Shown here: positions 15,020-52,278 of the stretch, in pieces
Layout of the letters: each line of letters starts with the position of its first letter
How positions within the stretch are numbered: position 1 is the stretch's first letter
From: a virus
Taxonomy: Duplodnaviria; Heunggongvirae; Uroviricota; Caudoviricetes
Strand: one strand, 5' to 3'
DNA: 64,000 nt
Virus record (IMG/VR): IMGVR_UViG_3300036453_000040
The notes under the pieces: model-generated
Databases searched by the model: none
Seen by the model: the letters and a program-made list of their open reading frames with translations, nothing else
Told to the model about the DNA's origin: nothing
Program-made: the position numbers and the translations under genes

Positions 15020-15025
15020 AAAACA

Positions 15026-15034
15026 ATTATACCA
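15026..15034 (-). promoter_or_regulatory. Canonical extended -10 element (TGGTATAAT) ending 6 nt upstream of the ATG of the 14075..15019 gene
   Basis: Coding-strand sequence CTGGTATAATTGTTTT-ATG. It sits in the 20-nt spacer after the stop of the upstream paralog. Confidence 0.45.
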
Positions 15035-15039
15035 GAAGC

Positions 15040-15984
15040 TTACGCATTGTACAAGCTGGCAACCATCTTAAGTTTCCATGATAGAGGCAGGTCCTCCCAA
15101 GGCCCCTCACCTTGCATGCTTGTAAGATACTCGTCAAGTTTCAACTTAAGGCCAAGCACATAAGAAGGCCTCCACCTATAAGACTCTAAATTCTTAAGAT
15201 GAAAACTAGCAGAAAGCTCAATAGGGCAATTCAAATTCTGATATACCCAATTAGAAAGAACATAACCGTCCTCCGCATGCCCTAATACTTCAACCAAAAA
15301 CGCAGGACTAGCATTTTCATTTAAAATAATACTTCTTACACTATTAGAGAGACTCCCATCAACCAAAGCCTTTAAGAACCGCTCATAATCAACAGGAGTA
15401 GGAATAAAACGCGAGTTTATAACAATATTCCACAAGTCAAGTGTAAGCGGCTGCTCCTTGAAATCAATTCGTGCTCGGAAATCTTCACCACTAACCAGCG
15501 GACTACATAGCAGCATGGACATAAAATACTTATGCCTAAAATCAAGAAGCGGGCGCAGACCATCAAAAAGCTCAACAACAGTTCTAGAAGACCGAAGCTC
15601 TTCAAGACCTACAATATCACGCAAATTCGCAGAATCACAAACAATACTTAACACCTGCTCAAAAGTCGTTAAAGGACTAAGAAAAAAGTTAGACAAAAAA
15701 TCATACGCCATAGGCGGCATAGGAGCGACCGAAAGCATGTCCTCCGCTTGCTTCAGTTTCACTAAAAGAATGCTGAATAAGTCAACTGGCAACGCAGGGT
15801 TAAAGGCAAGCTCCGCCAAACTATAGCACTCCGTCATACCTAAAACATCATGGCTGTTATGATCATCAAAAATCTGCCAAAGTACAGCAGGAGGAGTCAA
15901 CGGGTCATTAGCAGCGCTCATTAAGTCATTGCTACCTGTAGGCATAGCGAAAGCCGCAACCACTGTATTTTCCGCCCTAGTCAT
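15040..15984 (-). CDS. Tandem-array family protein (first, promoter-proximal member)
   Basis: C-terminal ...GEGPWEDLPLSWKLKMVASLYNA. Confidence 0.65.
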   Translation of the reverse strand: MTRAENTVVAAFAMPTGSNDLMSAANDPLTPPAVLWQIFDDHNSHDVLGMTECYSLAELAFNPALPVDLFSILLVKLKQAEDMLSVAPMPPMAYDFLSNFFLSPLTTFEQVLSIVCDSANLRDIVGLEELRSSRTVVELFDGLRPLLDFRHKYFMSMLLCSPLVSGEDFRARIDFKEQPLTLDLWNIVINSRFIPTPVDYERFLKALVDGSLSNSVRSIILNENASPAFLVEVLGHAEDGYVLSNWVYQNLNCPIELSASFHLKNLESYRWRPSYVLGLKLKLDEYLTSMQGEGPWEDLPLSWKLKMVASLYNA

Positions 15985-17911: not shown

Positions 17912-20164
17912 TTAGAGTGCGCAGCTTACGCATTCCTGTGACTGTAGAGCATCAAGGTTTTCGTTCAAAACACGTACATAGTAGAACGTCTTAATTTCCG
18001 CAATTGGAAATTTAGCGAGAACGGTACCGCGCTCATCGAGAGCCTTGGTTGAAGGCTTGCCCTTTGAGTAGGCATAAAGCATCGTCTGCACGATGGTCTT
18101 TGTGGTAGCGCTAGAAACATACCCTAGAGTAAGAGACAAACCTTGATCTACATAAGACTGAGCAATTGAATATATGTCAATTACTTTCTTTGGGTCAATC
18201 GAGTACATGTCATGGTTCTGGAAGTACTTCTCATTTCCCTCTGCTTCAGGAGTAGGAACATAGATAGTTCCAATCTTGCCTTCTGTGCGCTGTTCAATAA
18301 GTCCACCAGGCGTGGCTACCGCCAGGGCGCTCGGAGTTGAGGCATTAATATATGAAATGGACCCCGTTGGGGGGACAGCCTGAAGGTTCTGGTTGTACAT
18401 TCCGTCCTTCTTTACCTTGGCTGCTAGCTCTGCCCAGTCCGCTGGAGTTGGTACGAAGATATCCTTGAAGATCTCTTTTACCTTGTCTGTGCGAGGCTGG
18501 AAGATAGCAGGGTCTTCAGGGTTAGCGTACTTCTCGAAGAACTCTCCAGAAGCGTACTTTGATCCCTTAAAGCTACCGAAGGTTTCGCCTTTTTCTTTCG
18601 CAATGAGGTTGCTCGCGCGAATTGCATGGTAGGTGATTACTTGGAAGTACATGTTGGTGAGGTCGAGGCTTTCTTCGTCTCCGTAGTACATGTGGTGGAA
18701 TGCGAATGCGCCGTGTAGGTTCATTGCTCCTAGTCCTACTGCGTGTGCGCGTGCGTTACCGTTTTTGACGGTTGGTACTGCGTCGATGCTGGACATGTCG
18801 GATACTTGGGTGAGTACGCGGATTGCGGTTTCTACTGTTTGTCCGAGGTCTTTGGATTGTAGTGCTTTGCGTACGTTTAGTGAGCCTAGGTTACATGAGA
18901 TGTCTTGTCCTAGTTCAGTGTAGATTTGGTCGTCGCCTAGGATGGATGGCAGTTGTGGCTGTAGGATTTCACTGCATAGGTTGGACATGATGATTTTGCC
19001 TGGTACTTGGTTGGCTCGGTTTACGGCGTCTTCGAAGACGATGTATGGGTAGCCTGATTCCATTTGGATTTCTGCAAGGGTGGAGAGGAAGTGACGTGGG
19101 TCAATTTTCTCTTTGCGGATGTTGGGGTTGTCTACTGCTTCGCGGTAGATTTCGCTTACGTTGATCCATGAGAATTGTTTGCCGTAGACTTGTTCTATGT
19201 CGTAGGGGGAGAAGAGGTACATTGGTTCGCCGCTGCGAGCTAGTTCGAATGTTATGTCTGGGATTACTACGCCTAGTGATAGGGTTTTGATTCGTACTGC
19301 GTCGTCGGCGTTTTCTCGTTTGGAGTCGAGGAATTCCATGATATCGAGGTGGTGGGCGTTGAGGTATACTGCGCCTGCTCCTTGGCGTGCTCCTAGTTGG
19401 TTTGCGTATGAGAATGTGTTTTCTAGGATTTTCATGACGGGGATTACGCCTGATGCTTGGTTTTCAATCTTTTTGATTGGGTCGCCTTTGGCGCGAATGT
19501 TGGAGAGGTTTAGTGCTACTCCTCCGCCTCGTTTGGAGAGTTGTCCTGCTGAGTTTACTGCTCGTAGGATTGAGTTGAGGTCATCTTCTACGTTGAGGAG
19601 GAAGCATGATACTAGGTCTCCTCGTTGTGCTTTGGAGGAGTTGAGGAATGTTGGGGTTGCGGGTTGGAAGATTCCGTTGATCATTTCGTCTGCGATTCGC
19701 ATTGCGAATGCTAGGTTACCGTCTGCGATGTAGAGGGCGGTTGCGGCGATGCGGTCTTCGAAGCGTTCTAGGAAGCGTTTGCCGTCGAATGTTTTGAGGG
19801 CGTAGGAGGTGTAGAATTTGTATGCTCCTGCGAAGCTGGGGAAGCGGAATTTTTTGGAGTATACGAATTTGTATACTTTTTTGATTGAGGCCATGGAGTA
19901 TTTGGCCATGTATTCTGCTTCGTAGTATTCTTCTTCTACTAGGAATTTAAGTTTTTCTTCTAGGTCGGTGAACCATTGGGTGTTTGGGTTGACGTGGTTG
20001 AGGAAGTATGCTCGGACTGCTTGGCGGTCTTTGTCATATTGTACTACTTTGTTGCCGTTTTCGTCGGTTTTCCAGAGGTTGAGTTCAGCGTTGAGTTTGA
20101 GGTAGTCTGAGCTGGTACCTGAGTTGACTGATTTTACGTCGTTTGTGTTAGATTGGATTGTCAT
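17912..20164 (-). CDS. nrdE: Class Ib ribonucleoside-diphosphate reductase alpha subunit
   Basis: 750-aa protein. Length and the conserved N-terminal and C-terminal regions (...YYVRVLNENLDALQSQECVSCAL) match NrdE. It lies downstream of nrdH and nrdI. Confidence 0.9.
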   Translation of the reverse strand: MTIQSNTNDVKSVNSGTSSDYLKLNAELNLWKTDENGNKVVQYDKDRQAVRAYFLNHVNPNTQWFTDLEEKLKFLVEEEYYEAEYMAKYSMASIKKVYKFVYSKKFRFPSFAGAYKFYTSYALKTFDGKRFLERFEDRIAATALYIADGNLAFAMRIADEMINGIFQPATPTFLNSSKAQRGDLVSCFLLNVEDDLNSILRAVNSAGQLSKRGGGVALNLSNIRAKGDPIKKIENQASGVIPVMKILENTFSYANQLGARQGAGAVYLNAHHLDIMEFLDSKRENADDAVRIKTLSLGVVIPDITFELARSGEPMYLFSPYDIEQVYGKQFSWINVSEIYREAVDNPNIRKEKIDPRHFLSTLAEIQMESGYPYIVFEDAVNRANQVPGKIIMSNLCSEILQPQLPSILGDDQIYTELGQDISCNLGSLNVRKALQSKDLGQTVETAIRVLTQVSDMSSIDAVPTVKNGNARAHAVGLGAMNLHGAFAFHHMYYGDEESLDLTNMYFQVITYHAIRASNLIAKEKGETFGSFKGSKYASGEFFEKYANPEDPAIFQPRTDKVKEIFKDIFVPTPADWAELAAKVKKDGMYNQNLQAVPPTGSISYINASTPSALAVATPGGLIEQRTEGKIGTIYVPTPEAEGNEKYFQNHDMYSIDPKKVIDIYSIAQSYVDQGLSLTLGYVSSATTKTIVQTMLYAYSKGKPSTKALDERGTVLAKFPIAEIKTFYYVRVLNENLDALQSQECVSCAL

Positions 20165-20193
20165 ATTTTTCTTTCTTTAAACCTTTGAGGCTT

Positions 20194-20619
20194 TTACGTT
20201 GTTTGTGGTGAGGGTTTGTTTTCCGTTTGGCCGAATTCTAAAAGGCCTGTTGTTACTTTTTGTACGTCTTCTGTGTTTCCTGCTAGGTCGAACTTGTAGA
20301 GGAGGGGCACGTTAAGTTTTGCTGCTATCATGTCGCCTGCTATGGCGTATTCTTCTCCGAAGTTTAAACTTCCTGCGCCTATTACTCCTACGCAGAGTGT
20401 GCGGTAGGTTTCGTTGGCTAGGAATTTGCGTACTTGTGGTGGTACGTGCCCATGTCCTGCTTCTCCGTAGGAGGGACATATGAGAACGTATTGGTTGGAG
20501 AGGTGAAGCTCAGCGGTACCTTTAAGTGGTATCCTGTGCACTTCGCCTTTCCAACCGAGTTTTTGTACGAATTTGGTTGTGTTGTTTGAAACGTTTGAGA
20601 AGTAAATTATGTCTAGCAT
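20194..20619 (-). CDS. nrdI: Flavodoxin-like NrdI
   Basis: 141-aa protein starting MLDIIYFSNVSNNTTKFVQKL, sitting between nrdH and nrdE. Confidence 0.85.
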   Translation of the reverse strand: MLDIIYFSNVSNNTTKFVQKLGWKGEVHRIPLKGTAELHLSNQYVLICPSYGEAGHGHVPPQVRKFLANETYRTLCVGVIGAGSLNFGEEYAIAGDMIAAKLNVPLLYKFDLAGNTEDVQKVTTGLLEFGQTENKPSPQTT

Positions 20620-28532: not shown

Positions 28533-29573
28533 CTAAAAAGCAGAGATCTGGTCTATTCGCGAGTTAAGTTCTTCAAGATAGTCTGGTTCTAAGCGGGTAG
28601 CCCATTCATTCGGGAAAACGATTCCCGAATGAGCCGCGCCGACGAACGTACCTGCTATTGCTGCCATGCTATCCGAATCACCGCTCGTATAGACAACGCG
28701 ACGTAGAGCTTCTACTGGGTTATCACCATGCGTGTCAGCAATAACAACGGATACTAGTAGCGCTTCTTCAGCTACCCAGCCATCCGACTTAAGCAAAACA
28801 CAAGGGTCCATATTAATAGGTGAGTTAGCAAATTCTTCTACGTGTAACGAGCGTGATGCTAAGAAGTCTTTTAGTTGTATAAGGCCTTCTGTGTATATTG
28901 CGTTAAGTGGAGTTGCACGTTTGTTTTCCATCTCAAGTAGTTGATGAGTTTTTTCTGTTACAAACTTGAAAAGTTCATTGTTGCCTGTTGCTAAGGTAAC
29001 TGTACCGTCAAAGACTGCTTTTGTCGCAAGTGCTGTTAGTACTGCTGAGGATAATGCAAGCGGGTGAGAGTGAGTTACTTCTGCTTGTAGGAGACTTAAT
29101 CGTATAATACTATCTTCTGACAATGGAAGCAGCCCAAACCATGGGTTACGCATGTTAGCGCCGCATCCTTTTGAACTCCTCTGAGAACCTTCAAGGCCTG
29201 TGCGCATTGCGGAGTCTTCTAATTTATATAATGCGGTCATGCATGTATTACCTGGTGCACGATTGTTGCGAGGATCGTTGGACCACTCGATAAACTCATA
29301 AGCGAACATGAGTCGCATGTGGCGGGAAAAGTTCATTTCGTTAGATGAGTCAATAACCATTGTGGATATGATGGTCCAGTTATCTAAAACGGCTTTCATA
29401 GCAGCGAGACCCATTTGAGTATCATCTGTTATGAAAGCCGTTTTAACTGGGAACTCAGGTTTCTGTGCAGAAATGGTAGCAAAGTCTTTGAACTCTTGCC
29501 TGTAACCCCATGCATCGCCGTAAGCGCTACCGAAGATTGCATTGTGTACTTTTCTTGAAGAAACTATATCCAA
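28533..29573 (-). CDS. ADP-ribosylglycohydrolase family protein (DraG/ARH-like)
   Basis: N-terminal FGSAYGDAWGY. Segment TDDTQMGLAAM. C-terminal GDSDSMAAIAGTFVGAAHG. These are three signature segments of the ADP-ribosylglycohydrolase fold. Confidence 0.75.
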   Translation of the reverse strand: MDIVSSRKVHNAIFGSAYGDAWGYRQEFKDFATISAQKPEFPVKTAFITDDTQMGLAAMKAVLDNWTIISTMVIDSSNEMNFSRHMRLMFAYEFIEWSNDPRNNRAPGNTCMTALYKLEDSAMRTGLEGSQRSSKGCGANMRNPWFGLLPLSEDSIIRLSLLQAEVTHSHPLALSSAVLTALATKAVFDGTVTLATGNNELFKFVTEKTHQLLEMENKRATPLNAIYTEGLIQLKDFLASRSLHVEEFANSPINMDPCVLLKSDGWVAEEALLVSVVIADTHGDNPVEALRRVVYTSGDSDSMAAIAGTFVGAAHSGIVFPNEWATRLEPDYLEELNSRIDQISAF

Positions 29574-29583
29574 TTTTTCCTAC

Positions 29584-30354
29584 TTATCTCATATGATCAA
29601 AGAATTTATCGACAGAAAAATCAATCGCTTTATCTAGACCATTAAAAATGTCATCTTGCATTTTTTTAGAAAAACGCTTCATCCATTGGGATGTGTTTTC
29701 AATGTGAGCATGAAGCTGTTTACGTTGTTTATCAATGTAAGCAAGTTCCCTGACCATGATAATTCTTTGCTCTTTAAGGTGTTTAACTTCAGCGTCATCC
29801 CCGTTAGCCTTAGCAACATACATCGCCTCTTGGTTATCTTCAATGTTAGCTTCAATTTCATCACCACGTTCAGTTAAGCTGGTGAGCAATTTTTTTGAGC
29901 GGTTCATGTCGATTTTAGCATGAAGCAGTTTCATCTTATCGTTCATGAGAGGATCTTGTAGAATTTTTGCTAGTTTACGCTGAGCAATCCTGCGGTCCTC
30001 GGCAGCGGCTAACTCAGATGCGGAATTAAACCTTTCTGCATCACTGAGCTTCTCGTCATTAATTTTAGCTTCGAGAGATTCTTTGCCTTTTGCGGTTGCG
30101 TAGAACTCTGTAAGGGAGTCCTCTTTTGCCTCTTCAAGGGTATCGATACTTTTCTGAAGTTTAGCTTGCTCTTCAGAATAGAAACCGTCAATATCGGAAC
30201 CTTTCCAAGTATCTGGGTTTTCTTTCCTATAATTTTCTTGCTCTTGAGAAACGTCCTCTTTTTTCTGCTCTGCAACATGCAACTTGCGAGCAATCTCTCT
30301 GAGCTTATCGCTGGGGTGATTACTGCAATGAAATCCTGGCCATGGTCTACACAC
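29584..30354 (-). CDS. hypothetical acidic coiled-coil protein
   Basis: 256-aa ORF rich in E/K heptad-like sequence. Confidence 0.45.
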   Translation of the reverse strand: MCRPWPGFHCSNHPSDKLREIARKLHVAEQKKEDVSQEQENYRKENPDTWKGSDIDGFYSEEQAKLQKSIDTLEEAKEDSLTEFYATAKGKESLEAKINDEKLSDAERFNSASELAAAEDRRIAQRKLAKILQDPLMNDKMKLLHAKIDMNRSKKLLTSLTERGDEIEANIEDNQEAMYVAKANGDDAEVKHLKEQRIIMVRELAYIDKQRKQLHAHIENTSQWMKRFSKKMQDDIFNGLDKAIDFSVDKFFDHMR

Positions 30355-30394
30355 TAGTTAATTCCTTTCAGGATATAACTATCGGCGGGGCCGT

Positions 30395-30970
30395 CTAAGG
30401 AGTGTTAAGTTTAAGCTCACAAATAAACTTGTATACGTCATCCCACGTGTAAGCACGCAGGCCAGCCATGCCCTGATTGTAGGGTGCGTCAAAAATAATG
30501 ACGGTTCGACCTGCTGCATCAAAATTGAGAATGTTCGAAGGCGAGTCGTCAATGTACACGTCAGCGAACACATCGACCTTATCTCGCACAAACATGATAT
30601 CGCGGTAAGGAATGTCGTTCTTGTCCAGCCACTCAGCAGTGTTAGCTACAACCTTATAGTTCTGACCGTGCTTAACAAAACGAGAAGTGATAACACGAAG
30701 GTGATCGCCTTCACCGTTCAAACGCCATAGGGTTTCGCTTGCACCCTCCATTACGTCCATATCCTTATATAGACCCATAGCTACCGCCTCGGAGTGGTAC
30801 TTAACAAAGTCCTCCGAAACATGGGGCCAGTTAGTGAAATTGTAATCAATTGGCTCGGGGAACATGGTCATGCGGTCAGCTTCTGGAATGCCTAGCTGGT
30901 TGGAGACGAAAGTTCTCAGTACTTCAACGTACTTACCTGTAACGCCGTCAAGATCTACACCAATAATCAT
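30395..30970 (-). CDS. 5'(3')-deoxyribonucleotidase-like HAD phosphatase (NT5C family)
   Basis: N-terminal MIIGVDLDGV (DxDG motif I). Overall pattern of the NT5C-type nucleotidase family. Confidence 0.6.
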   Translation of the reverse strand: MIIGVDLDGVTGKYVEVLRTFVSNQLGIPEADRMTMFPEPIDYNFTNWPHVSEDFVKYHSEAVAMGLYKDMDVMEGASETLWRLNGEGDHLRVITSRFVKHGQNYKVVANTAEWLDKNDIPYRDIMFVRDKVDVFADVYIDDSPSNILNFDAAGRTVIIFDAPYNQGMAGLRAYTWDDVYKFICELKLNTP

Positions 30971-34958: not shown

Positions 34959-35000
34959 CACCCCCTATACCTACTATGGTATAGGGGGTGCCTTGTTTTT
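34959..35000 (+). terminator. Rho-independent terminator (13-bp GC-rich stem plus T-run)
   Basis: caccccctatacc-tactat-ggtatagggggtg ccttgttttt. Confidence 0.55.
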
Positions 35001-36465
35001 AGCTGATGTTTTTGCTGATCCATTTAACGCCATCCGCTTGCGTTCTAAATGAATCAGAGTATTGAGCCTTGCGAGCTTTAGTTAAAGCTTCTTTCATCCA
35101 TGGGCCAGGCTTTCGAGTAGGGAATGCTGCCATCATGTTTTCGCCATTTACTAAGTCTTTCTCAGCAGAGTCAGCAATTCCCAGTTTTTCAGCTTTAGCT
35201 AAGATACGGCTCCCCTGCTTAGCGTCACCAGTTGCCATCTCATACAAAGCCCAATCTCGGATGCTTGTGTTATTGGGCATGTCATGAGACCAATTACGCA
35301 AAGAGGTTTTGCCTTGCTTTTGTGGAACTTTGAGTTCTGTAATATTAAAAGCATTATTTTTTTCTTTATCTCCCACGGTTGTAGTGGTAAGAAACTTACG
35401 CCTGTTCTTTGGGTTTAAGCGCTGAGAGATAGTCGCAGAAAGCAAAGCTACCCTCTTGTTCTGTGGTACTGAGCCATTGTCAATAAGTTTTTGCATGCGA
35501 CGAACATTACGGTACAATTTGGAATCGTTTATTTCTGTCAAACCATCAAAGTTTTGATCCCATTCTGTTTCTTTCAAAAGACGAAGGGCTTTATCTGTAC
35601 GCTTCCCCTTTTCGTACAATTTCTGGAATTCCATTTGTACTCGCTCAGTTGCAAGATCTGCAAACGCTGGTCGGAGTGATTTAGCTTTTTCAACAGTATC
35701 AGGGTGTAAGTCCATGCCGAAACGTGAAGCCATTTGTACTCCCCTGAGTACACGCAGCGGGTCCTCATCAAAAGCATCTGAAACATGACGTAGTTGTTTA
35801 GCTTCGATATCCTTAAGCCCACTATGCTTGTCAATGATAAAACCTAACTTATGAGAGTACATAAGAGCATTAATTGTGTAATCACGTCGAGCGGTTGCCT
35901 CTTCCAATGATAGGTCAGGGTTCACTTCTACAGCGAATCCTTTATGACCGTCGCCTATTTTGCTATCAGTGCGAGGTAAGGAAACATCAAAGTCTTCATC
36001 ATCAATACGAATTTTGAGTACTCCGAAAGATTTTCCTACCTCATCCACATGTCCAAGCTTACGGAGTGACTTAATAATAGAATCTGCCTGTCCGCCATAA
36101 ACCTCAATGTCGATATCCTTTGACGGCAAGCCTAGAAGTGCATCTCTAACGCTACCACCGACAATGTAAGGCGAGAAACCATCGTTTTCAAGCTGACGTA
36201 AGACTGCTACAGTATGAGGCGTTAGATCCATTACATAGGTTCTGACATTGCCTAGATCTTTTTTCTCATCATTGAGTGACTCAATTTTTGAAGTAGCATC
36301 TAAAAGCGCTGACTCACTTTTCTTACGTTGTTTATCTGTTAGCCCTTGGCCCAGCAGTCGAGCAGCATGATACTGCTTCTGAGCCTGTAGGTTTCGTTTC
36401 ATAACCCCATACGGGTTATTTTCGTTACAGCGATGACGGCCTTCATTATCAATTGCTCTACACAT
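34999..36465 (-). CDS. cca: Class II tRNA nucleotidyltransferase (CCA-adding enzyme or poly(A) polymerase family)
   Basis: Head-domain motifs YIVGGSVRDALLG...DIDIE, RRDYTINA and DPLRVLRGVQMASRFG. There is an 80-aa N-terminal extension. Confidence 0.75.
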   Translation of the reverse strand: MCRAIDNEGRHRCNENNPYGVMKRNLQAQKQYHAARLLGQGLTDKQRKKSESALLDATSKIESLNDEKKDLGNVRTYVMDLTPHTVAVLRQLENDGFSPYIVGGSVRDALLGLPSKDIDIEVYGGQADSIIKSLRKLGHVDEVGKSFGVLKIRIDDEDFDVSLPRTDSKIGDGHKGFAVEVNPDLSLEEATARRDYTINALMYSHKLGFIIDKHSGLKDIEAKQLRHVSDAFDEDPLRVLRGVQMASRFGMDLHPDTVEKAKSLRPAFADLATERVQMEFQKLYEKGKRTDKALRLLKETEWDQNFDGLTEINDSKLYRNVRRMQKLIDNGSVPQNKRVALLSATISQRLNPKNRRKFLTTTTVGDKEKNNAFNITELKVPQKQGKTSLRNWSHDMPNNTSIRDWALYEMATGDAKQGSRILAKAEKLGIADSAEKDLVNGENMMAAFPTRKPGPWMKEALTKARKAQYSDSFRTQADGVKWISKNIS

Positions 36466-36513
36466 TTTCTATGTCCCTAAGTTTAGTCTTGGTATATTAC
36501 TATCGAAGACTAA

Positions 36514-37317
36514 CTAGTTTGCAGCTTTTAAACGCACTAAAGTTGCATGTTTTTTACTGATAGCTTCGTGGCTATTCTTATTAGGGTTATTCAATAACTG
36601 GTTTGGTACTACTTCTAAGATGACAAATCTCATATTACGAGGCAATAAGTGCTCTTGCTCTTTGTGAGCATTAGCATGCCCGAAGCTGGACAAGGGGGCA
36701 CCGCTAGACGTTTCGATCTCATAAACAATGTTTGAAAGACCAGAATCCTTACCATTCAAAAGCTCTAAGTATTGCTCACGATTCTTAATTCCGAACGTTC
36801 CCGTAGACGGAGGAAGATCCTCATACGATTCGGGCAAAAAATCAAATAACGCTTCAGGGTTAGTTGTCGTTGACATGTAGCCTTCAATTGTTAGCTCTTG
36901 CCCAACTTTAAACTTGTTGCTTACAAAATCAGCAGATTCATCTGGAGTTGCGAAGTTGTTATCAAATAATTTAGTTGCCCTATAAACAATCTTGCTCTTT
37001 GTGCCTTCTATTTTTTTATGTTTTGCTAATGCTGTATCAATTTTTGTCATCATCGTTTTAACGTCATGGCTTTGAACACCGTAAAGATGCTCCCCAATTT
37101 GGGTATAGGACTGGTTCGCATAAGAAGCTAGCGCTTCTTTTTCTGCATCAGTTAGCAAAAGAGAATAGTTCTGTGAGTCTCTAAGAGTTTTGTTGATATC
37201 ATTTGCAGGGTTAAAATTAAACGTACCTGTTTTTAAATCTAATGTACTTGCAAAATTAACTCCATGCACACGACAAATAGCAGGGATATTAGCTCGACAT
37301 GCAATGGGTTTAATCAT
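36514..37317 (-). CDS. C3-like (R-S-E class) mono-ADP-ribosyltransferase domain protein
   Basis: KIVYRATK provides the catalytic Arg. GYMSTTT is the STS motif. EQEHLLPRN is the Q/E-x-E motif followed by LLPR, as in C3 exoenzyme. There is no signal peptide. Confidence 0.6.
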   Translation of the reverse strand: MIKPIACRANIPAICRVHGVNFASTLDLKTGTFNFNPANDINKTLRDSQNYSLLLTDAEKEALASYANQSYTQIGEHLYGVQSHDVKTMMTKIDTALAKHKKIEGTKSKIVYRATKLFDNNFATPDESADFVSNKFKVGQELTIEGYMSTTTNPEALFDFLPESYEDLPPSTGTFGIKNREQYLELLNGKDSGLSNIVYEIETSSGAPLSSFGHANAHKEQEHLLPRNMRFVILEVVPNQLLNNPNKNSHEAISKKHATLVRLKAAN

Positions 37318-37413: not shown

Positions 37414-37752
37414 ATGACAGATGACAAGACTGCCGCTAAGAAACCACGGGTAAAAAAAGAACCACCTAAGCATACAGATTTTCTTGGTACAGCTCTTGAC
37501 GTTGACGACATGGTTGCCTTCTCACAGGGAAGCTCCTCTACGATGGCTCTTGGCCGCGTGACGGGATTCACTGCTAAATCAGTACGCGTTGAACCTATAA
37601 GAGTGTCTAATACTAATATTGCAATAGGTTACGCTTATCGCGGGGACGGAACCCCTATTACTCGCTCCCCGAATCAGGTAGTTAAACTACCTAGCAACAT
37701 CCAAGAATTTAACTACTTGCCTCGTGACTGGATCACTCACGTATTCGAGTAG
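37414..37752 (+). CDS. hypothetical protein
   Basis: 112-aa ORF downstream of the promoter element. Basic N-terminus. Confidence 0.45.
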   Translation: MTDDKTAAKKPRVKKEPPKHTDFLGTALDVDDMVAFSQGSSSTMALGRVTGFTAKSVRVEPIRVSNTNIAIGYAYRGDGTPITRSPNQVVKLPSNIQEFNYLPRDWITHVFE

Positions 37753-41688: not shown

Positions 41689-42762
41689 TTAATCTTTAAT
41701 TGTAGCATCCCATGGTGCATTCAACAGCGCCTTAGAGAAGACTGATAATTTGTCCCTAAGTAGCGTGGTATACGCACGGTCGTAAACTGCTATATCTGCT
41801 TTTTTCTCTTTGCTATCACGATTAAAAAAGCTAGATATTTTTTCCAAAGCGCCTTTACTTTCTTGCGCTCGGTAAGAACTTAACCCGTTTCTAACGAGGT
41901 CGTTACGCATAGATTTAACGAGTGCTTCTTTTTCGCTATCTGTATAATCAGGGTTATTAACAAGGCGACCAATTGCGTTGTTATACTTACCTACGCTAAT
42001 ACCACTGTTACCCACGGCAAAATCAGTATCCAATTCATTATAATCAAGCCCGTCAAGATGAACCGTTTTATCTTCCCAGTGAGCTATATCTTCTTTTTGA
42101 AGAAAAAATGCATTTCTGCTTCTAGTAGCTAAAGCAACAGCATTATCTACTTTAGTATGAAATTCGTCATAATTAGCTTGTAATCGAGTAACGTTATCTT
42201 GAGTTTTAGCGTAATCTAACGCTGAAGTTGCACGTGCTTCTTCTTCAGTTGCGCCTTTACCTTCATAAGTTCCATTCTTCCATTGCTCTTCAAAAACTTG
42301 AGGGCTGTTATAGCTATGCGCTTCTTTGGCGAAATCAAGCATTTGTTTGCTATCTTCATATTTAGCTAAAAGTTGCTCTTGGCCTAAAGCTCTATTGTAG
42401 TTTTTACGTATTGCTCCTAAAGAACTTGCGCTTGGATGTTTAGTGCTCTCTAAAAGATCTGGTTTCATCCTATTTGAGATATTTAACTCATGACCAAAAG
42501 AGGGAGTACTTGAGTCAACAGCTGCGGGGTCCACCTTGTTAAAAACTGAATCAGCTATCTCCTTGCTCAGGGCCGCGCGTTCTACCGCGTCAATTTTGCC
42601 ATCAGCGGATGCAAGATCAATGGAAGCTTGATGACGTTCTAAGCTTTTAGTCGTTTCACCTATCCTATGGTTACTTGCACCGACATATTTACACGCTCTT
42701 TTAGTAGCTTTGCAGGGTTTCCATCCCGTAGGAGTATTATGCTGTAGTTGTTTAGTTGCCAT
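41689..42762 (-). CDS. hypothetical protein
   Basis: 357-aa ORF. Confidence 0.5.
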   Translation of the reverse strand: MATKQLQHNTPTGWKPCKATKRACKYVGASNHRIGETTKSLERHQASIDLASADGKIDAVERAALSKEIADSVFNKVDPAAVDSSTPSFGHELNISNRMKPDLLESTKHPSASSLGAIRKNYNRALGQEQLLAKYEDSKQMLDFAKEAHSYNSPQVFEEQWKNGTYEGKGATEEEARATSALDYAKTQDNVTRLQANYDEFHTKVDNAVALATRSRNAFFLQKEDIAHWEDKTVHLDGLDYNELDTDFAVGNSGISVGKYNNAIGRLVNNPDYTDSEKEALVKSMRNDLVRNGLSSYRAQESKGALEKISSFFNRDSKEKKADIAVYDRAYTTLLRDKLSVFSKALLNAPWDATIKD

Positions 42763-42828
42763 GCGTTATATCTATCAGTTTCAATGGGGACCATTACATA
42801 TTAGCAACAGAACGAACACTTTGGGAGT

Positions 42829-43491
42829 TTAGCTTAAAAGAGAAGTGAACCCGTTTAAAGCGAAGTCATCTCGTCCTCGCCATGATGCGCTCGTTTGAAC
42901 GTGGTTAGCTCGTACAAATTTTGCAACATGTTGTCCAAACTCGCTATATGGAATCATGCCCGCATCACGCAACACGAACCCTTCTGAGACTGTGGAGTCT
43001 AAGACCTTGCCCCATGCTTGGGTAGCTTCCTTATAGCTTGTACCGCGATACAGTGTTGGTACAACGGGCAGTCCCAGCATGCTAGCGAACTCACTCATGT
43101 CATCGAAAGAGAGCAAGTTGTTGTTCTCATCCCAAATCCCGAATACATATAAAGGCCCCTCAAGTGAATCGTAAGCTACTGACCTGCGAGCTTGAAGTGA
43201 CTCTCCTGTTACTCGCCAACCCGTAGGAATATCAAAGCGTACCTGACTCCAGATTCGCTTCGCTAACGTATCCCAAGCGTGAGTGCCAGAATCAAGAGAG
43301 CGAGCATGGAAATAATCAGGGTAAAGGGAGACGTTTCCGCCGTCAAGTTTCTCAGTTACTACAAGTTCAATGCCGCTCTCTAAATAAGCAAGGGCAGAAG
43401 CTGAAGCCATCTTGTCATCACTGGTCATGCCTTCAGAAAAGGGCAAGTGTGGCGTACGAGGATATTTATAACGCATAGTTGATTCACTCAT
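42829..43491 (-). CDS. ATP-dependent RNA ligase family protein (KxDG nucleotidyltransferase, minimal Rnl type)
   Basis: KYPRTPHLP. Motif I TEKLDGGN. Motif IV-like EGFVLRD. Motif V-like AKFVRANH. Confidence 0.6.
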   Translation of the reverse strand: MSESTMRYKYPRTPHLPFSEGMTSDDKMASASALAYLESGIELVVTEKLDGGNVSLYPDYFHARSLDSGTHAWDTLAKRIWSQVRFDIPTGWRVTGESLQARRSVAYDSLEGPLYVFGIWDENNNLLSFDDMSEFASMLGLPVVPTLYRGTSYKEATQAWGKVLDSTVSEGFVLRDAGMIPYSEFGQHVAKFVRANHVQTSASWRGRDDFALNGFTSLLS

Positions 43492-43699
43492 GAACTTACC
43501 CTTTCTTATGGCTGGTTTGTATTAAATAACCATACCATACGAATGGTTGGTTTACAACAGGCAGTTAACTTCATTTTGCAAGTTGAGCTTTTTAGTTGAA
43601 CACTTCAATTAATCAGAGCTTAAAATCTTTCACTCCCATATTTCTGTAGCCCCTCCAGAAATATGGGAGGGGCTACAGAAATACAGCGAATTAAACTAC

Positions 43700-45193
43700 C
43701 TACTTCACTAGTGGAAATAAGACAGTATCCCTGATTCCCTTGTTAGAAAGAATCATAATTAAACGGTCAATTCCCATGCCAATACCTCCAGTTGGAGGCA
43801 TTCCGTATTCTAATGCTTGCAGGAAGGACTCATCTAGAGCCATGGCTTCATCGTCACCACGCCCAGCAAATCTAGCTTGTTCAACTAGACGCTCGCGTTG
43901 GATAACAGGGTCAACAAGTTCTGAGTACCCTGTTGCTACTTCCATACCAGCAATGTAAAGGTCCCACTTTTCTACTACTCCAGCGATAGAACGATGATTA
44001 GCAACTAGCGGCGAGCTATCAACAGGGTAATCGAAGACAAAAGTAGGCAAGGTAAGGTTAGGCTTAACGTAAGATTCCCACAGTTCTTCAACTAGCTTTC
44101 CTCTTGTTGGAGCTTGAATCTTGATATTGCGAAGATCAGCAAGGCTTACAATTTCGCTAAGCGGAGTTAGAGGAGTAATTTCAACCCCAGAGGCTTCACT
44201 CAAAGACTCATACAAAGAAATGCGCTGCCACGGGTCGTTTAAGCTCCCGAGGTTCTTCTTGACTTCAGCTAGGGTTTCAGCTGTAACATATCTACCAATA
44301 TCATGGGCAGACTCCTTGATAACGGCCTCTACACGATCTGCCATCCTATTGTAATCAGAGTAAACTTCATAAGCTTCAAGCATAGTAAACTCAGGAGAGT
44401 GAGTTGAATCCATTCCCTCGTTACGGAAGTTCTTGTTAATTTCAAATACTCGGTCCATGCCGCCAACAACAGCTCTCTTCAAAAAAAGCTCTGGAGCAAT
44501 ACGTAGGTAAAGGTCTTCGTCAATAGCATTGCTATGGGTTACGAACGGGCGTGCAGAAGCGCCCCCATGGAGAGTTTGCAAGATAGGGGTTTCGACTTCA
44601 AGGTAGTCATCCTCCTCGAACATTCTACGAATTCTTGAAATAACCTTTGAACGAAGAATTGCTTGGTTGCGAGCTTCACTACTGAGAATCAGGTCAAGGT
44701 AACGTTGACGAGCGCGAGTTTCATCATTCAAGTCAGAATGCTGGTTGGGCAGAGGCCGAATAGCCTTAGAAATCACACCCCAAGTAACCACAAAGATAGA
44801 CAGTTCACCTGTCTTAGAGGTGGAAACAAGGCCCGTAACAGTTACATGGTCACCAAGGTCAACCTTCTGCCTCCAAACAAGGTGTGACTCATCGCCAATT
44901 TCAGCACGAGAGATCAAAAGTTGCATTTGATCTCCACGGCCAGATTGAATAACAGCAAAAGAAATGCGACCTGCGTTGCGAATACTCATAAGTCGGCCAG
45001 CAATAGTGACAGTATCTTCAGTCTTGGTATCAGCTTCAAGGTCAGTATAGTCCATACGGATCTTCGCGATGCTATCAACAGCTTCCGCAAAGTTAACAGG
45101 ATAGGGGTTATGCCCCATCTCAATTAGGTTCGCTCGCTTCTCCAGCCTTACAAGCATCTGGTCTGACGTGTCGGGAGCGCGTGTTGAACTCAT
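43700..45193 (-). CDS. lysS: Lysyl-tRNA synthetase, class II
   Basis: N-terminal OB anticodon-binding domain. Class II motifs. C-terminal GGIGMGIDRLIMIL. Confidence 0.9.
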   Translation of the reverse strand: MSSTRAPDTSDQMLVRLEKRANLIEMGHNPYPVNFAEAVDSIAKIRMDYTDLEADTKTEDTVTIAGRLMSIRNAGRISFAVIQSGRGDQMQLLISRAEIGDESHLVWRQKVDLGDHVTVTGLVSTSKTGELSIFVVTWGVISKAIRPLPNQHSDLNDETRARQRYLDLILSSEARNQAILRSKVISRIRRMFEEDDYLEVETPILQTLHGGASARPFVTHSNAIDEDLYLRIAPELFLKRAVVGGMDRVFEINKNFRNEGMDSTHSPEFTMLEAYEVYSDYNRMADRVEAVIKESAHDIGRYVTAETLAEVKKNLGSLNDPWQRISLYESLSEASGVEITPLTPLSEIVSLADLRNIKIQAPTRGKLVEELWESYVKPNLTLPTFVFDYPVDSSPLVANHRSIAGVVEKWDLYIAGMEVATGYSELVDPVIQRERLVEQARFAGRGDDEAMALDESFLQALEYGMPPTGGIGMGIDRLIMILSNKGIRDTVLFPLVK

Positions 45194-45203
45194 TTTATAC
45201 CTT

Positions 45204-45249
45204 TCAAAAAAATATGGTTACATCCCATTATAGCGGATGTAACCATATT
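45204..45249 (-). terminator. Terminator hairpin (15-bp stem) with a T-run on the minus strand, between the Nudix gene and the lysS start
   Basis: aatatggttacatcc-cattatagc-ggatgtaaccatatt preceded on the plus strand by aaaaaaa. Confidence 0.45.
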
Positions 45250-45276
45250 TTGCAAGCTTGCTATTTTAGTGTTAAT

Positions 45277-45813
45277 TTAAAGAAAAGTTTTTGTAGCTAC
45301 TTTTTCCCAGCTTAGGATACCTTCAGTGATTAGCCATTCCGCAATATGTTTAGTATCAAAACCAATCTCATCACTTTTCAAATTGCTAATTTCTTCTAAG
45401 TCAAGCCAGCGAATATCAGTCGATTCACCTTCTACAGGAAGACCACGAGGAAGTTGGTCAGTTACAAAACCATACCCAAGGTCAGTATGCATGTGTTTGC
45501 CTTCTGCGTCAACTTTATGCGTGTTATGAAGAATAGGAATCGGGTGAATTGTTACGCTGGGGAGGAACTTAATGCGATGATATGGTTGAAGAATCTCAAG
45601 CTGATTAATATCATAGCCTGTTTCCTCAAGCAGTTCATGCGTAATAGCTTCCCATGGCGTCTCGTTTAGTTCAATATGGCCACCTGCTTGTAGAAGTTTG
45701 TGGAATTTTTTATGCATATGCAGAAAAAGTTTAGGTTTCGTATCACCTGTGTAAACGATGAAAGCGCTAGTAGTATGGTCGTGTTGTCCGTCTAAGTCAT
45801 GAATATGTGCCAT
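45277..45813 (-). CDS. Nudix hydrolase
   Basis: Nudix box GGHIELNETPWEAITHELLEETGY. Confidence 0.8.
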   Translation of the reverse strand: MAHIHDLDGQHDHTTSAFIVYTGDTKPKLFLHMHKKFHKLLQAGGHIELNETPWEAITHELLEETGYDINQLEILQPYHRIKFLPSVTIHPIPILHNTHKVDAEGKHMHTDLGYGFVTDQLPRGLPVEGESTDIRWLDLEEISNLKSDEIGFDTKHIAEWLITEGILSWEKVATKTFL

Positions 45814-51096: not shown

Positions 51097-51516
51097 TCAC
51101 TCACTACTTGAGGTTTTGCCTGTTGCACTATCACGAGTCAGAGTAATATCTAGCTTGCTATCCGTTATAGTAATCACATAATTATTCCAACCACCTACTA
51201 CAGTGATCTTGCTCGTATCGTAGGTAGGAGGAGTTATTGGAACTACAGACAAGTCTTCAGCTATAACATCCTCCACAAGATATGTTTGAATTTCAATGTT
51301 TGCTACGCTTAGGTCACTATTCAGTGTTGCAATTTTTGCTTCTTCCGCAGGTGTTCGACTCTGCTGCACATTAACTTCTTGCACGATAGGCGTAACGTTA
51401 GAACATCCAGATAATGTTACAGCGCTTGCGCTTATCATTATGAAAGCTACTACATGCATGATCTTTTTCTTCATATTAGAAGTATCGGGCAAATCACGAT
51501 AAAGCGCGCGGGTCAA
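51097..51516 (-). CDS. Lipoprotein. Paralog of 51574..52278 with one copy of a beta-rich module
   Basis: Signal peptide plus lipobox LSGC. Module DLSVVPITPPTYDTSKITVVGGWNNYVITITD. Confidence 0.55.
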   Translation of the reverse strand: MTRALYRDLPDTSNMKKKIMHVVAFIMISASAVTLSGCSNVTPIVQEVNVQQSRTPAEEAKIATLNSDLSVANIEIQTYLVEDVIAEDLSVVPITPPTYDTSKITVVGGWNNYVITITDSKLDITLTRDSATGKTSSSE

Positions 51517-51573
51517 TAATCAAAATGCTTAGGTGACGTTTTGATTATTGACCCGCACTAAATGTGAACCAGC

Positions 51574-52278
51574 TTATAGCTTTATCTCCAGAATCCTACC
51601 AGTCTCACTATCATACGTAGAAGAAAGGCCTAACTCTGTATCAGTTATCGTGATTGTATAATCCATCCATCCTCCCTCTACGACAACAACACTAGTATCA
51701 TACGTAGGCGAGGTTACGGGGACTGCTGAAAGGTCATTAGCAATAGGATCATTAACGAGATAGGTAGCCAGATCTATGTGGACATTTTTGAGGTCAGAAG
51801 TTAAAACTTTGGCTTGGTCTAGCTCTGCGTCAACTTCTTCAACGGCGCTCTCTTCTATTTCTGCTAGTGCTGGCTCCTCTGCTTGTTTTTCTGCGGGTTC
51901 TCCCACTCGTTCGCTAGTAGTTATACCGTTTTCGGTGATCGTCAGCATGCCGTCATTCCAAACTACCAGAATGTCATTGTCCTTATCCTCCAACGTAATC
52001 GTATATTTTTCCCAGTTACCTTCCACAGTGATGAAGCTAGTAATAAATGTTGGCCGAGAAATATCAACCATGGATAGGTCTTCTGCTCTCGGATTTTCAG
52101 CGAGATATGCAAGGACTTCTTGATTAGCATGGAGAACATCTTGTTGAATTGAAACCATACCTGTTGGTTCTGTTAATTGTATTGTTTCAGGTGTCGTTGT
52201 GTTAGAACAACCTGAAAGAGTTATGGCGCTTGCGCCTATCATTATTGCAGTTACTACATGTATAATTTTTTTCTTCAT
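51574..52278 (-). CDS. Lipoprotein with two copies of the same module
   Basis: Near-identical signal peptide and lipobox. Modules DLSMVDISRPTFITSFITVEGNWEKYTITLED and DLSAVPVTSPTYDTSVVVVEGGWMDYTITITD. Confidence 0.55.
   Translation of the reverse strand: MKKKIIHVVTAIMIGASAITLSGCSNTTTPETIQLTEPTGMVSIQQDVLHANQEVLAYLAENPRAEDLSMVDISRPTFITSFITVEGNWEKYTITLEDKDNDILVVWNDGMLTITENGITTSERVGEPAEKQAEEPALAEIEESAVEEVDAELDQAKVLTSDLKNVHIDLATYLVNDPIANDLSAVPVTSPTYDTSVVVVEGGWMDYTITITDTELGLSSTYDSETGRILEIKL

Follow-up and report, generated by a model that had tools for sequence, protein, structure and literature searches.

Phage ADP-ribosyltransferases (ARTs) are central tools of host takeover and, to our knowledge, have been studied almost exclusively in T4. 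The T4 enzymes Alt, ModA and ModB are R-S-E ARTs with RNA polymerase, EF-Tu, S1 and MazF among their targets (PMC8120803), and among the enzymes of polyvalent proteins packaged in virions, ARTs are reported to be the commonest (PMC9503650). Other R-S/T-E ARTs, such as TreThr and ScARP, act on tRNA, RNA or DNA (PMC13617354, PMC8120803). CCA-adding enzymes, for their part, have been reported in several jumbo phages, with a role in tRNA repair (PMC7824862). A pairing of an ART with a CCA-adding enzyme, which the earlier note on this DNA had called undescribed, is indeed not described in PMC5512222, PMC9503650 or PMC7824862. The word 'CCA' is absent from PMC5512222, and the accessible part of its section on Pol-beta nucleotidyltransferases (NTases) deals with domains related to NTox45 and with minimal NTases.

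We analysed a stretch of 64 kb, hereafter the window, in which an ART gene (ART1) lies directly upstream of a gene for a class II CCA-adding enzyme. The gene pair and the features around it are listed here.

34959–34990, no strand assigned: GC-rich 13-bp hairpin just past the CCA stop, likely the end of the transcription unit (terminator scan and sequence)
34999–36465, minus strand: class II CCA-adding enzyme homolog, 488 aa, head/neck/body/tail plus N-terminal extension (Pfam, PHROG, 1MIV and AF2)
36253–36414, minus strand: helical hairpin, residues 18–71, the bulk of the CCA N-terminal extension (AF2; no counterpart in 1MIV)
36427–36462, minus strand: N-terminal Cys tag of the CCA enzyme, M-C2-R-A-x8-R-C13 (homolog alignment)
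36466–36513, minus strand: 48-nt ART1–CCA spacer with conserved ribosome-binding segment GGGACATAGAAAATG (scan and alignment of relatives)
36514–37317, minus strand: ART1, R-S-E (ExE) mono-ADP-ribosyltransferase of the ADPrib_exo_Tox family, 267 aa (Pfam, PHROG, motifs and AF2/Foldseek)
37264–37299, minus strand: N-terminal Cys tag of ART1, C7-R-A-x5-C15-R-V-H18-G (family alignment)
37414–37752, plus strand: DUF7205 gene, divergent from ART1 and kept in the synteny block (PHROG 2251)

The window belongs to a huge uncultured phage rather than to a cell. Its phage-type genes include RIIA, ribonucleotide reductase, HNH endonucleases, NT5C and other genes of deoxynucleotide metabolism, and its relatives encode endonuclease VII and an M15 peptidase and have tRNA arrays (a match to SAM-lyase was weak). 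A small cellular (CPR-like) genome had been considered as the source, prompted by relatives on contigs of 0.5–1.0 Mb and by the presence of a lysyl-tRNA synthetase (LysRS), RadA and the CCA enzyme; it was ruled out by the phage-like gene content, by the absence of any close relative of the lineage among 185,579 GTDB species genomes and by the dense tRNA arrays of the relatives, which include a suppressor tRNA. A 472-aa 'DnaB-like' ORF, considered as a sign of replication, is actually RadA/Sms. Because the replicon is a huge phage, the question of whether the nucleotidyltransferase gene is a cell's sole cca does not apply. Searches of 50,697 phage records with the nucleotide sequence of the 4.5-kb region, and by tblastn with ART1 and the second ART of the window (ART2), returned no match, which points to a phage whose close relatives have not been sequenced. 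Neither ARAGORN nor Rfam detected an RNA gene in the window. ART and CCA genes are both ordinary phage accessories as gene types, and the window encodes several further genes that bear on their interpretation.

28533–29573, minus strand: ADP-ribosylglycohydrolase (ARH; DraG/ARH1-like), candidate eraser of Arg-ADP-ribose (PF03747, 1e-39; PHROG 6572)
29584–30354, minus strand: 256-aa protein with N-terminal tag MCRPWPGFHCSNHP; 10 nt separate its gene from the ARH gene downstream
41689–42762, minus strand: 357-aa protein with tag CKATKRACKYVGASNH; the RNA ligase gene lies just upstream
42829–43491, minus strand: RNA ligase, of the tRNA/RNA repair set (PF09414, 2.6e-23)
43700–45193, minus strand: LysRS, class II (PF00152, 9e-83; NCBIfam lysS above curated cut-offs)
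45277–45813, minus strand: NUDIX hydrolase, possibly acting on ADP-ribose/NAD or NAD caps (PF00293, 1.2e-11)
58870–59655, plus strand: ART2, second ExE ART, 261 aa, with tag variant RCWTHDCSLRHG (PF03496, 2.8e-17)

By profile and modelled fold, ART1 is an intact ART of the R-S-E clade, and catalysis is predicted. The protein matched Pfam PF03496 (ADPrib_exo_Tox) over residues 49–246 (E=1.3e-12; 47.9 bits, above the gathering threshold of 23.4 bits) and, weakly, PHROG 802, 'Alt-like ADP-ribosyltransferase' (2.4e-5). Its AlphaFold (AF2) model (pLDDT 83, pTM 0.83) gave best PDB matches in Foldseek to C2-I, Vip2, Certhrax, iota/CDTa and C3, with E-values of 4e-10 to 1e-7 and a Foldseek probability of 1.00 for C2-I, Vip2, iota, CDTa and C3. 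The profile and structure searches thus bear out the ART fold, a split beta-sheet core plus N-terminal helices, and the placement in the ART superfamily that had been proposed from the letters of the sequence. So does the order of the R-S-E hallmarks, VYR (R113), GYMSTT (S149-T150-T151), EQE (E220, E222) and LLPR (224–227), of which R113, STT, E220-x-E222 and LLPR are all invariant in an alignment of nine family members. ART2, which shares 24% identity with ART1 (E 3e-8), has FRG, STS and EKE-ILLPR, as read from its sequence.

The earlier note had described ART1 as C3-like. This description holds for the shared family, the structural match to C3 and the LLPR that follows the catalytic Glu in both, but not for the catalytic motif: ART1 has ExE, the arginine type of Vip2, iota toxin and T4 Alt/Mod, and not the Q-x-E of C3 exoenzyme, which goes with asparagine specificity. 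An E-x-E motif is typical of arginine-modifying ARTs (PMC8120803); it leaves a protein target for ART1 unproven because R-S/T-E ARTs also modify tRNA, RNA or DNA. A role as a KptA/Tpt1-like RNA 2'-phosphotransferase was set aside because ART1 bears the R-S-E signature and not that of KptA (PMC9503650, PMC8120803).

Like the ARTs of binary-toxin and C3 type (Vip2, C2-I, iota Ia, CDTa and C3), in which it finds its best structural matches, ART1 belongs to PF03496 and has the R/STT/[QE]xE order. Unlike them, it is encoded by a phage and not in a toxin locus, has no second, adaptor ART-like domain and is probably not secreted; its N-terminus (MIKPIACRANIPAICRVHGVN), judged by eye, has no hydrophobic segment resembling a signal peptide. 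With T4 Alt, ModA and ModB it shares phage origin, the R-S-E signature, the ExE motif and the presence of several paralogs (two in the window), whereas its similarity to them is at profile level only and it carries an insert of ~35 residues after the STT motif. In size it is presumably nearer to ModA and ModB than to Alt, and we know of no T4 enzyme with the N-terminal Cys tag of ART1.

The class II nucleotidyltransferase that had been noted 48 nt downstream of the ART is confirmed by Pfam (PF01743, 4e-21; PF12627; PF13735) and by PHROG 2244, 'tRNA nucleotidyltransferase' (3e-58). Like the enzyme of Geobacillus stearothermophilus (1MIV), it has the full-length architecture of Pol-beta head, neck, body and tail, the last three serving to bind tRNA, with the motifs GGxVRD...DxD, RRD and EDxxR. 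Its residues 86–470 aligned to residues 9–379 of B. stearothermophilus 1MIV (phmmer 2e-25; Foldseek 2e-16, target-normalised TM 0.76), and the AF2 model has a pLDDT of 90. The motifs are G103-G104-S-V-R107-D108, D117-I-D119, R193-R194-D195 and E234-D235-P-L-R238; GGSVRD...DID, RRD and EDPLR are invariant in the alignment of CCA homologs. The protein differs from bacterial class II CCA-adding enzymes in having an extension of ~85 residues and an NCBIfam score below cut-off: it scored 163.9 bits against the best equivalog model, PRK13299, with a cut-off of 290. A changed specificity is therefore possible, and the protein is a divergent class II member for which CCA, CC, A or poly(A) specificity could all be envisaged.

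The N-terminal extension, previously put at 80 residues and called unusual, is real because the 1MIV match begins only at residue 86, but it is usual within the clade, being common to all full-length homologs listed. It consists of a Cys tag and a helical hairpin, with AF2 helices at residues 18–38 and 44–71 and a pLDDT of ~63 at residues 11–20 that rises above 90 from residue 21.

Both genes lie on the minus strand, and the CCA ORF begins 48 nt past the ART1 stop. A terminator scan found no terminator-like site between them, and the hairpin in the spacer was no better than in shuffled sequences (z = -0.65). The ribosome-binding segment in the 3' part of the spacer, which precedes the CCA start, does not vary among four relatives. 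The hairpin past the CCA stop has a T-run only on the plus strand. A promoter scan was uninformative because shuffled sequences gave more sites (8.6) than the window did (6). Taken with the absence of a terminator and the conserved ribosome-binding segment, the compact layout makes the operon suggested in the earlier note plausible, and the two genes are probably co-transcribed.

ART1 and the CCA enzyme also start with the same Cys...Cys(-His) tag. In the ART1 family its consensus is CRAxxxAxCRxHG; for the CCA enzyme, the alignment shows no variation at M1, C2, G9, R12 and C13. The tag was present on 89 of the 145 representative ARTs, and MC opens at least 104 of the 120 CCA homologs listed. 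Model confidence is low in this segment, with a pLDDT of 50–61 in ART1 and below 50 for residues 1–15 of the CCA enzyme. Three further window proteins start with the tag, namely the 256-aa protein, the 357-aa protein and, as a variant, ART2. The tag is N-terminal in 4/74 window ORFs, compared with 1/516 internal windows; for the loci of the lineage, the corresponding counts were 14/101 and 1/641. It can be aligned across ARTs, CCA enzymes, a YqaJ nuclease and proteins without assigned function, it also occurs on an HD protein and a GNAT, and it is through the tag that an ART profile picks up CCA proteins. Two forms can be distinguished: MC[RQ]xxxxGG[RK]RCxxH ahead of a basic helix, and a longer YHIxxxGxxxxCRAxxxxCPxGG...HF..EEA. 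The tag resembles a small metal knuckle that leads into an Arg-rich helix. None of the Pfam, NCBIfam or PHROG models covers it, and querying 5.8 billion proteins with a tag-only alignment was unproductive (12 candidates, 1 match). An apparently undescribed tag is borne by many enzymes of this phage group.

The 256-aa tagged protein had no Pfam, PHROG or PDB match. It was considered as a cryptic ART and rejected, given an hhalign probability of 0.1% and the lack of a PDB match. The 357-aa tagged protein likewise had no family match.

Adjacency of ART1 and the CCA gene is kept in close relatives and lost in more distant ones. Every locus with the exact arrangement also retains the synteny of methylase, DUF7205, ART, CCA and NT5C genes; DUF7205 homologs were found via PF23835 in loci L001, L003 and L007. 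Loci L071 and L004 have ART homologs and no CCA gene within 10 kb, L007, L011 and L013–L021 have CCA homologs and no ART, and in L009 the two genes are separated by two genes on the opposite strand. ExE ARTs nevertheless stand next to CCA genes, in unrelated surroundings, in a further two phage lineages (L022 and L049). The ART and CCA ORFs of L022 overlap by 8 nt and both start MTKYHI...CRA...C, and L049 has ARTs on both sides of a CCA domain that is itself fused to ART-PolyVal and NUDIX. Around CCA genes in 55 IMG/VR loci, only three ADPrib_exo_Tox genes were detected, all within 1–2 genes of CCA.

In L071 and L004 the ART1 homologs have tRNA genes on all sides, and the CCA genes in L013 and L022 lie inside tRNA arrays in which most tRNA genes have no encoded CCA. 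In L011 an RNA ligase gene directly precedes the CCA gene, and a homolog of the NUDIX gene adjoins a short ART in L004. CCA domains also occur in CCA-kinase fusions (P0106) and at the N-terminus of giant proteins with GNAT and peptidase domains (L045, L046 and L055). Genomes of this lineage carry several ART paralogs. The recurrent proximity of ART genes to CCA and tRNA genes hints at more than co-expression, and a direct ART–tRNA link is possible.

We consider it fairly probable that the pair comprises two phage accessory effectors, probably co-transcribed, with ART1 modifying host proteins and the CCA enzyme maintaining tRNA 3' ends. [quoted passage not shown] The CCA enzyme would most likely add or restore the 3'-terminal CCA of tRNAs, and since the window also has an RNA ligase and LysRS, its gene suits a phage toolkit that matures and repairs tRNAs. 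We infer that the two proteins are co-deployed, united by shared regulation, targeting or delivery, and we do not think of them as a toxin–antidote pair or as two steps in one pathway. The phage's own ARH and NUDIX proteins would be likelier modulators of ADP-ribosylation than the CCA enzyme. The best PDB matches of the ARH are the ADP-ribosylarginine hydrolase ARH1 (7e-7) and DraG; an IMG/VR scan with the ARH protein gave no match. As in DraT-DraG and Tre1-Tri1, one genome has both an ExE ART and a hydrolase of the DraG/ARH1 type, although here the ART1 and ARH genes are 7 kb apart and not adjacent.

The tag is found on kinds of enzyme (ART, nuclease, HD and GNAT) that are fused, in other phages, into 'polyvalent' proteins for injection. 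The domains are those of the polyvalent proteins described by Iyer et al. 2017 (PMC5512222), namely ART, GNAT, nucleotidyltransferase, NUDIX, peptidase and nuclease; unlike in those proteins, ART1 (267 aa) and the CCA enzyme (488 aa) are separate, each with a short common tag. A role of the tag as a delivery or targeting signal is speculative. In its broadest form, which we hold to be unlikely, the tag would be a new, widespread metal- or nucleic-acid-binding module that gathers the stand-alone effectors of huge phages at the virion, for injection, or at RNA or DNA, and ART1 and the CCA enzyme would then act jointly on the tRNA pool or the translation apparatus. The effectors concerned would be the ARTs, the CCA-adding enzyme, the nuclease, the HD hydrolase and the GNAT.

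Likewise improbable is a purely accidental juxtaposition of ART1 and the CCA gene within a variable accessory region, without common regulation or function, their adjacency in close relatives reflecting shared ancestry only. The exact arrangement always comes with the surrounding synteny, and distant relatives split the genes or have only one of them. With two ARTs among the ~70 genes of the window, adjacency by chance would arise at a few percent per lineage. What this reading explains poorly is the 48-nt spacer, which has no terminator and a conserved ribosome-binding segment, the recurrence of ART–CCA adjacency or fusion in unrelated surroundings in L022 and L049, and the N-terminal tag common to both proteins.

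Improbable too is an RNA-directed module in which ART1 ADP-ribosylates tRNA or a tRNA-bound protein and the tag brings both enzymes to the same RNA, the phage marking or inactivating host tRNAs while its own tRNAs mature. Such a module would fit the ExE ARTs that abut CCA genes in three lineages (the window clade, L022 and L049), the finding that three of three ADPrib_exo_Tox genes detected in the 55 IMG/VR loci are near CCA, the ART1 homologs amid tRNA genes in L071 and L004, the knuckle-like tag with its Arg-rich helix and the existence of tRNA-modifying R-S/T-E ARTs (PMC13617354; ScARP in PMC8120803). An electropositive surface has, however, been reported for ARTs that target RNA or DNA (PMC12340436), and none is suggested for ART1 because the overall charge of its family is near-neutral (pI 5.7–8.8; 6.8 for the window protein). 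Nor is the tag specific to tRNA enzymes, because the YqaJ nuclease, the HD protein and the GNAT carry it too, as do proteins without an assigned function. Adjacency is lost in L071, L007 and L011, several ART paralogs per genome raise the odds of accidental adjacency, and tRNA arrays commonly lie in accessory-gene regions anyway.

The earlier suggestion of a toxin–antitoxin or toxin–immunity pair, with ART1 as toxin and the nucleotidyltransferase as its antagonist, draws on a two-gene layout with the potentially toxic ART first and on nucleotidyltransferase antitoxins and toxins known elsewhere (MenT; minimal NTases with HEPN), but is very improbable because adjacency breaks in more distant relatives, the partners occurring independently (ART without CCA in L071 and L004, CCA without ART in L007, L011 and L013–L021) or apart (L009) rather than as an obligate pair, and it also has against it that the second gene encodes a full-length homolog of CCA-adding enzymes and not a minimal NTase, that this lytic-type huge phage has its own ARH, the usual ART antagonist (Tre1-Tri1, DraT-DraG; PMC8120803), and that the best PDB matches of ART1 include 8za7, an ART–ARH toxin–immunity pair.

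The locus shows a divergent, apparently active subfamily of ARTs, expanded in uncultured huge phages, whose genes lie repeatedly near tRNA-maintenance genes. If the tag served as a signal for delivery or targeting, it would account for the way in which very large phages deploy many small effectors without polyvalent fusion, and its sequence would make such effectors easy to look for in metagenomes. If both enzymes were gathered through it, the pair would be an unfused counterpart of polyvalent proteins in which a phage ART is physically coupled to tRNA 3'-end repair. If the tag is not such a signal, the pair would be a clean case of ordinary phage accessory genes and not a toxin–antitoxin system.

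The window encodes two ADP-ribosyltransferases (ARTs), an ADP-ribosylglycohydrolase (ARH) and a homolog of class II CCA-adding enzymes (hereafter the CCA enzyme), located as follows.

ADP-ribosylation and CCA-enzyme genes of the window
36514-37317, minus strand: ART1, R-S-E mono-ADP-ribosyltransferase, 267 aa in the ORF list
34999-36465, minus strand: CCA enzyme, 488 aa, starting 48 nt after the ART1 stop
58870-59655, plus strand: ART2, ExE ADP-ribosyltransferase (PF03496, 2.8e-17)
28533-29573, minus strand: ARH, DraG/ARH1-like ADP-ribosylglycohydrolase

The earlier note had read ART1 as a C3-like transferase from three motifs, and these are present as it described: VYR (R113), GYMSTT (S149-T-T) and EQE (E220 and E222) followed by LLPR, with no variation across the nine members of the family alignment. 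Placement in the ART superfamily was borne out by a match above threshold to Pfam ADPrib_exo_Tox (E 1.3e-12), by a match to the PHROG family 'Alt-like RNA polymerase ADP-ribosyltransferase' and by a confident AlphaFold model built from the family alignment (pLDDT 83), whose best PDB matches were binary-toxin enzymatic components (C2-I, Vip2, iota and CDTa), Certhrax and C3. The label 'C3-like' held for fold and size and failed at the specificity-determining residue, as the C3 catalytic motif is Q-x-E, whereas ART1 has E-x-E. The latter, which ART1 has in common with T4 Alt, ModA and ModB, is the hallmark of arginine-modifying ARTs, including those three (PMC8120803). The ART1 subfamily is rare: a word-indexed search of 5.8 billion proteins returned only nine, and profile matches among 1.84 billion representatives numbered 11 at E<=1e-30, rising to 541 at E<=1e-3.

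ART1 would probably ADP-ribosylate arginines of host proteins, a role for which T4 Alt offers a precedent, with RNA polymerase, EF-Tu and the MazF endoribonuclease among its targets (PMC8120803). The main rival reading, that ART1 targets tRNA or tRNA-bound factors, is possible, as tRNA is by now an established substrate of some R-S/T-E ARTs (PMC13617354); the near-neutral charge of the ART1 family is weak evidence, giving a nucleic-acid substrate no support. An RNA- or tRNA-modifying module, one of two ideas in the earlier note, is likewise possible. As for modification by the ARTs themselves, its more plausible regulators are the phage's ARH and the NUDIX hydrolase also encoded in the window. 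In this phage the two ARTs (ART2 is 24% identical to ART1) are the writers, the ARH is a candidate eraser and the NUDIX enzyme a candidate ADP-ribose/NAD hydrolase; all are components that have been surveyed for phages (PMC9503650). The ARH gene lies in an operon-like run on the minus strand (28533-30970) comprising NT5C, a 256-aa protein, ARH and then RadA/Sms; the 256-aa protein, whose gene precedes that of the ARH by 10 nt, has no detectable family.

The gene downstream of ART1 was confirmed to encode a full-length CCA-type nucleotidyltransferase. We found Pfam matches to the poly(A)-polymerase/CCA head, RNA-binding and tail domains, a match to PHROG 'tRNA nucleotidyltransferase' (3e-58) and, in both sequence and fold, a match to the Geobacillus stearothermophilus CCA-adding enzyme along its whole length, with the catalytic motifs GGxVRD...DxD, RRD and EDxxR all kept. 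The canonical enzyme is preceded by an extension of ~85 residues; in the model (pLDDT 90), confidence is low for residues 1-15, and a helical hairpin spans residues 18-71. The protein is a divergent member that scores below the NCBIfam equivalog cut-offs, so its exact specificity may be altered.

Jumbo phages are known to carry CCA-adding enzymes as accessory genes, which have been tied to tRNA repair (PMC7824862). The likely role here is to mature and repair tRNA 3' ends, and it fits several features of gene content: RNA ligase and lysyl-tRNA synthetase genes lie 5-8 kb from the CCA gene in the window, an RNA ligase gene is directly upstream of the CCA gene at one homologous locus (L011), a P-loop kinase is found at the C-terminus of some CCA homologs (P0106), and arrays of 16-44 tRNA genes surround the CCA gene in two IMG/VR lineages. 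Most of the phage tRNA genes close to CCA or ART genes do not encode their 3' CCA: it is encoded by 9 of the 44 in L013, 1 of 16 in L022 and 0 of 6 in L071. L022 also has a tmRNA gene (20133-20483).

Co-transcription of ART1 and the CCA gene, which the earlier note had proposed as an operon, is predicted, with support from a short spacer without a terminator, a conserved ribosome-binding segment and a hairpin past the CCA stop. The exact layout of the pair is kept in homologous loci down to 47% ART identity (L001, L002, L003/L069 and L068), and its shared ancestry is indicated by the surrounding synteny, which is also kept wherever flanking DNA exists. At 38-39% ART identity (L009, L010 and L072), the pair is split by two opposite-strand genes, and on the 879-kb contig of L071 (ART identity 42%) there is no CCA gene within 10 kb. 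In L004 the short ART adjoins a NUDIX gene instead, and no such ART is near the CCA homologs of L007, L011 and L013-L021. That the genes occur apart or singly in these relatives argues against the toxin with its antagonist that the earlier note had also suggested. At L007, where the R-S-E ART is missing from that position, a WGR-PARP gene (3268-4581) precedes the CCA gene by 3.4 kb.

The association recurs in other settings. At L022, a 309-kb IMG/VR contig with unrelated surroundings, the start of the CCA gene lies 8 nt inside an ExE ART gene. L049 encodes a 1693-aa polyvalent-type protein (9797-14878) that combines a CCA-type nucleotidyltransferase with HD, ART-PolyVal (PF18760) and NUDIX domains, flanked on either side by ADPrib_exo_Tox ART genes (8718-9425 and 14904-15626). 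Among 55 IMG/VR loci centered on CCA genes, only three ADPrib_exo_Tox genes were detected, each at most a gene or two from CCA. The ART1 homologs of L071 and L004 sit amid tRNA genes. These observations are suggestive of an association beyond chance; caution comes from the several ART paralogs per genome, with two in the window and at least two each on 885-kb and 512-kb contigs. In other phages an N-terminal CCA domain is fused to GNAT, DUF192 or metallopeptidase domains (L045, L046 and L055), and L026 and L031 encode giant CCA-N-terminal proteins with no Pfam domain beyond HD.

ART1 and the CCA enzyme also carry a common N-terminal tag, CRANIPAICRVHG (residues 7-19) in ART1 and MCRAIDNEGRHRC (residues 1-13) in the CCA enzyme, which occurs at five sites in the window.

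Tag sites in the window
37264-37299, minus strand: ART1
36427-36462, minus strand: CCA enzyme
30313-30354, minus strand: the 256-aa protein upstream of ARH (29584-30354)
42670-42714, minus strand: a 357-aa protein (41689-42762)
58906-58941, plus strand: ART2, a variant at the N-terminus

The pattern is C-[RQK]-A-x(3-8)-C-x2-H, often MCRxxxxGGRRC; many tags read MCRxxxxGGRRCPxHxDP and are followed by an Arg-rich helix, and in others the alignment gives a longer form, YHIxxxGxxxxCRAxxxxCPxGG...HF..EEA. Many proteins unrelated to one another start with the tag, in the window and at L007, L009, L011, L022 and L072; in relatives these are a YqaJ nuclease, an HD-domain protein and a GNAT, along with several others to which no function is assigned. 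The tag is concentrated at N-termini, at 4 of 74 ORF N-termini versus 1 of 516 internal windows in the window, and at 14 of 101 versus 1 of 641 in the lineage loci. It is carried by 89 of 145 ART representatives, and at least 104 of the 120 CCA homologs listed begin with MC. An ART-derived profile picks up the CCA proteins of the lineage through the tag segment, and at L022 the ART and CCA enzyme have their first six residues, MTKYHI, in common. The tag matched no Pfam, NCBIfam or PHROG model and was modelled by AlphaFold with low confidence. The conserved Cys, Cys and His (often plus Asp), followed by a basic helix, suggest that it may be a small metal-binding knuckle, perhaps nucleic-acid-binding. 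The kinds of enzyme that bear it are fused into virion-delivered polyvalent proteins in other phages (PMC5512222, PMC9503650), which suggests that the tag could have a common targeting or delivery role.

By gene content, the replicon is a very large phage. The window encodes phage-type proteins (an RIIA-like protein, ribonucleotide reductase and two HNH endonucleases), a 1666-aa protein that repeatedly matches a 'minor tail protein' PHROG family, a DNA methylase, NT5C, NUDIX, RNA ligase, dCMP deaminase, lysyl-tRNA synthetase and RadA; most remaining ORFs had no family match, and no nucleotide-level relatives were found among GenBank phages. The contig on record for the ART1 protein is 110,710 bp long, and close homologs of the CCA protein are on contigs of 0.5-1.0 Mb in phage-like neighborhoods (methylases, DUF7205, NT5C, YqaJ nuclease and gyrase). 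Among loci with ART1 homologs, L004 has genes for endonuclease VII and an M15 peptidase together with a weak match to SAM-lyase, and both L004 and L071 have tRNA genes that include a suppressor. In 185,579 bacterial and archaeal species, one genome each, the CCA relatives detected were all distant (30-50% identity) and mostly partial, and neither the ART nor a tagged CCA gene was present in 1.24 Mb of flanks around them. The window gene is therefore not the cca of any catalogued cellular lineage, so asking for another canonical cca elsewhere in the genome, as the earlier note did, does not apply in that form. Close relatives of the lineage were likewise not found in GTDB species genomes.

The contigs of L007, L009, L012 and L071 measure 532, 696, 880 and 879 kb and have phage-like content, with misassembly or concatemers possible; further contigs with close homologs of window proteins reach 1.0 Mb. 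To our knowledge, contigs of 0.5-1.0 Mb, if single phage genomes, would be at or beyond the largest known phage sizes. Among the tRNA genes around the ART1 homolog of L071 is an amber suppressor with anticodon CTA (7184-7256, minus strand; labelled Pyl by ARAGORN), which may hint at stop-codon reassignment in L071. Elsewhere in the window, eight tandem paralogous genes (8403-15984, minus strand) encode proteins of 302-314 aa, of which one was tested and had no Pfam or PHROG match; their N-terminal motif resembles (A/S)xDPL(S/T)xPxLLxxL(Y/F), and two more genes, at 6703-8330, carry a motif like it. A translation/RNA cluster (41689-45813, minus strand) comprises NUDIX, lysyl-tRNA synthetase (bona fide, above NCBIfam cut-offs), RNA ligase (PF09414) and the tagged 357-aa protein, which is of unknown function. 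Two neighboring paralogous ORFs at 51097-52278 (minus strand) have lipoprotein-like N-termini (...LSGCSN).

Both R-S-E ARTs and CCA-adding enzymes are already known from phages; what appears to be new is, foremost, the common N-terminal tag, along with the divergent ART1 subfamily and its recurrent siting beside CCA and tRNA genes. We conclude that ART1 and the CCA enzyme would act as two co-expressed phage effectors: the CCA enzyme would probably keep host and phage tRNAs chargeable, and an ART able to disarm host RNases would complement such tRNA repair.
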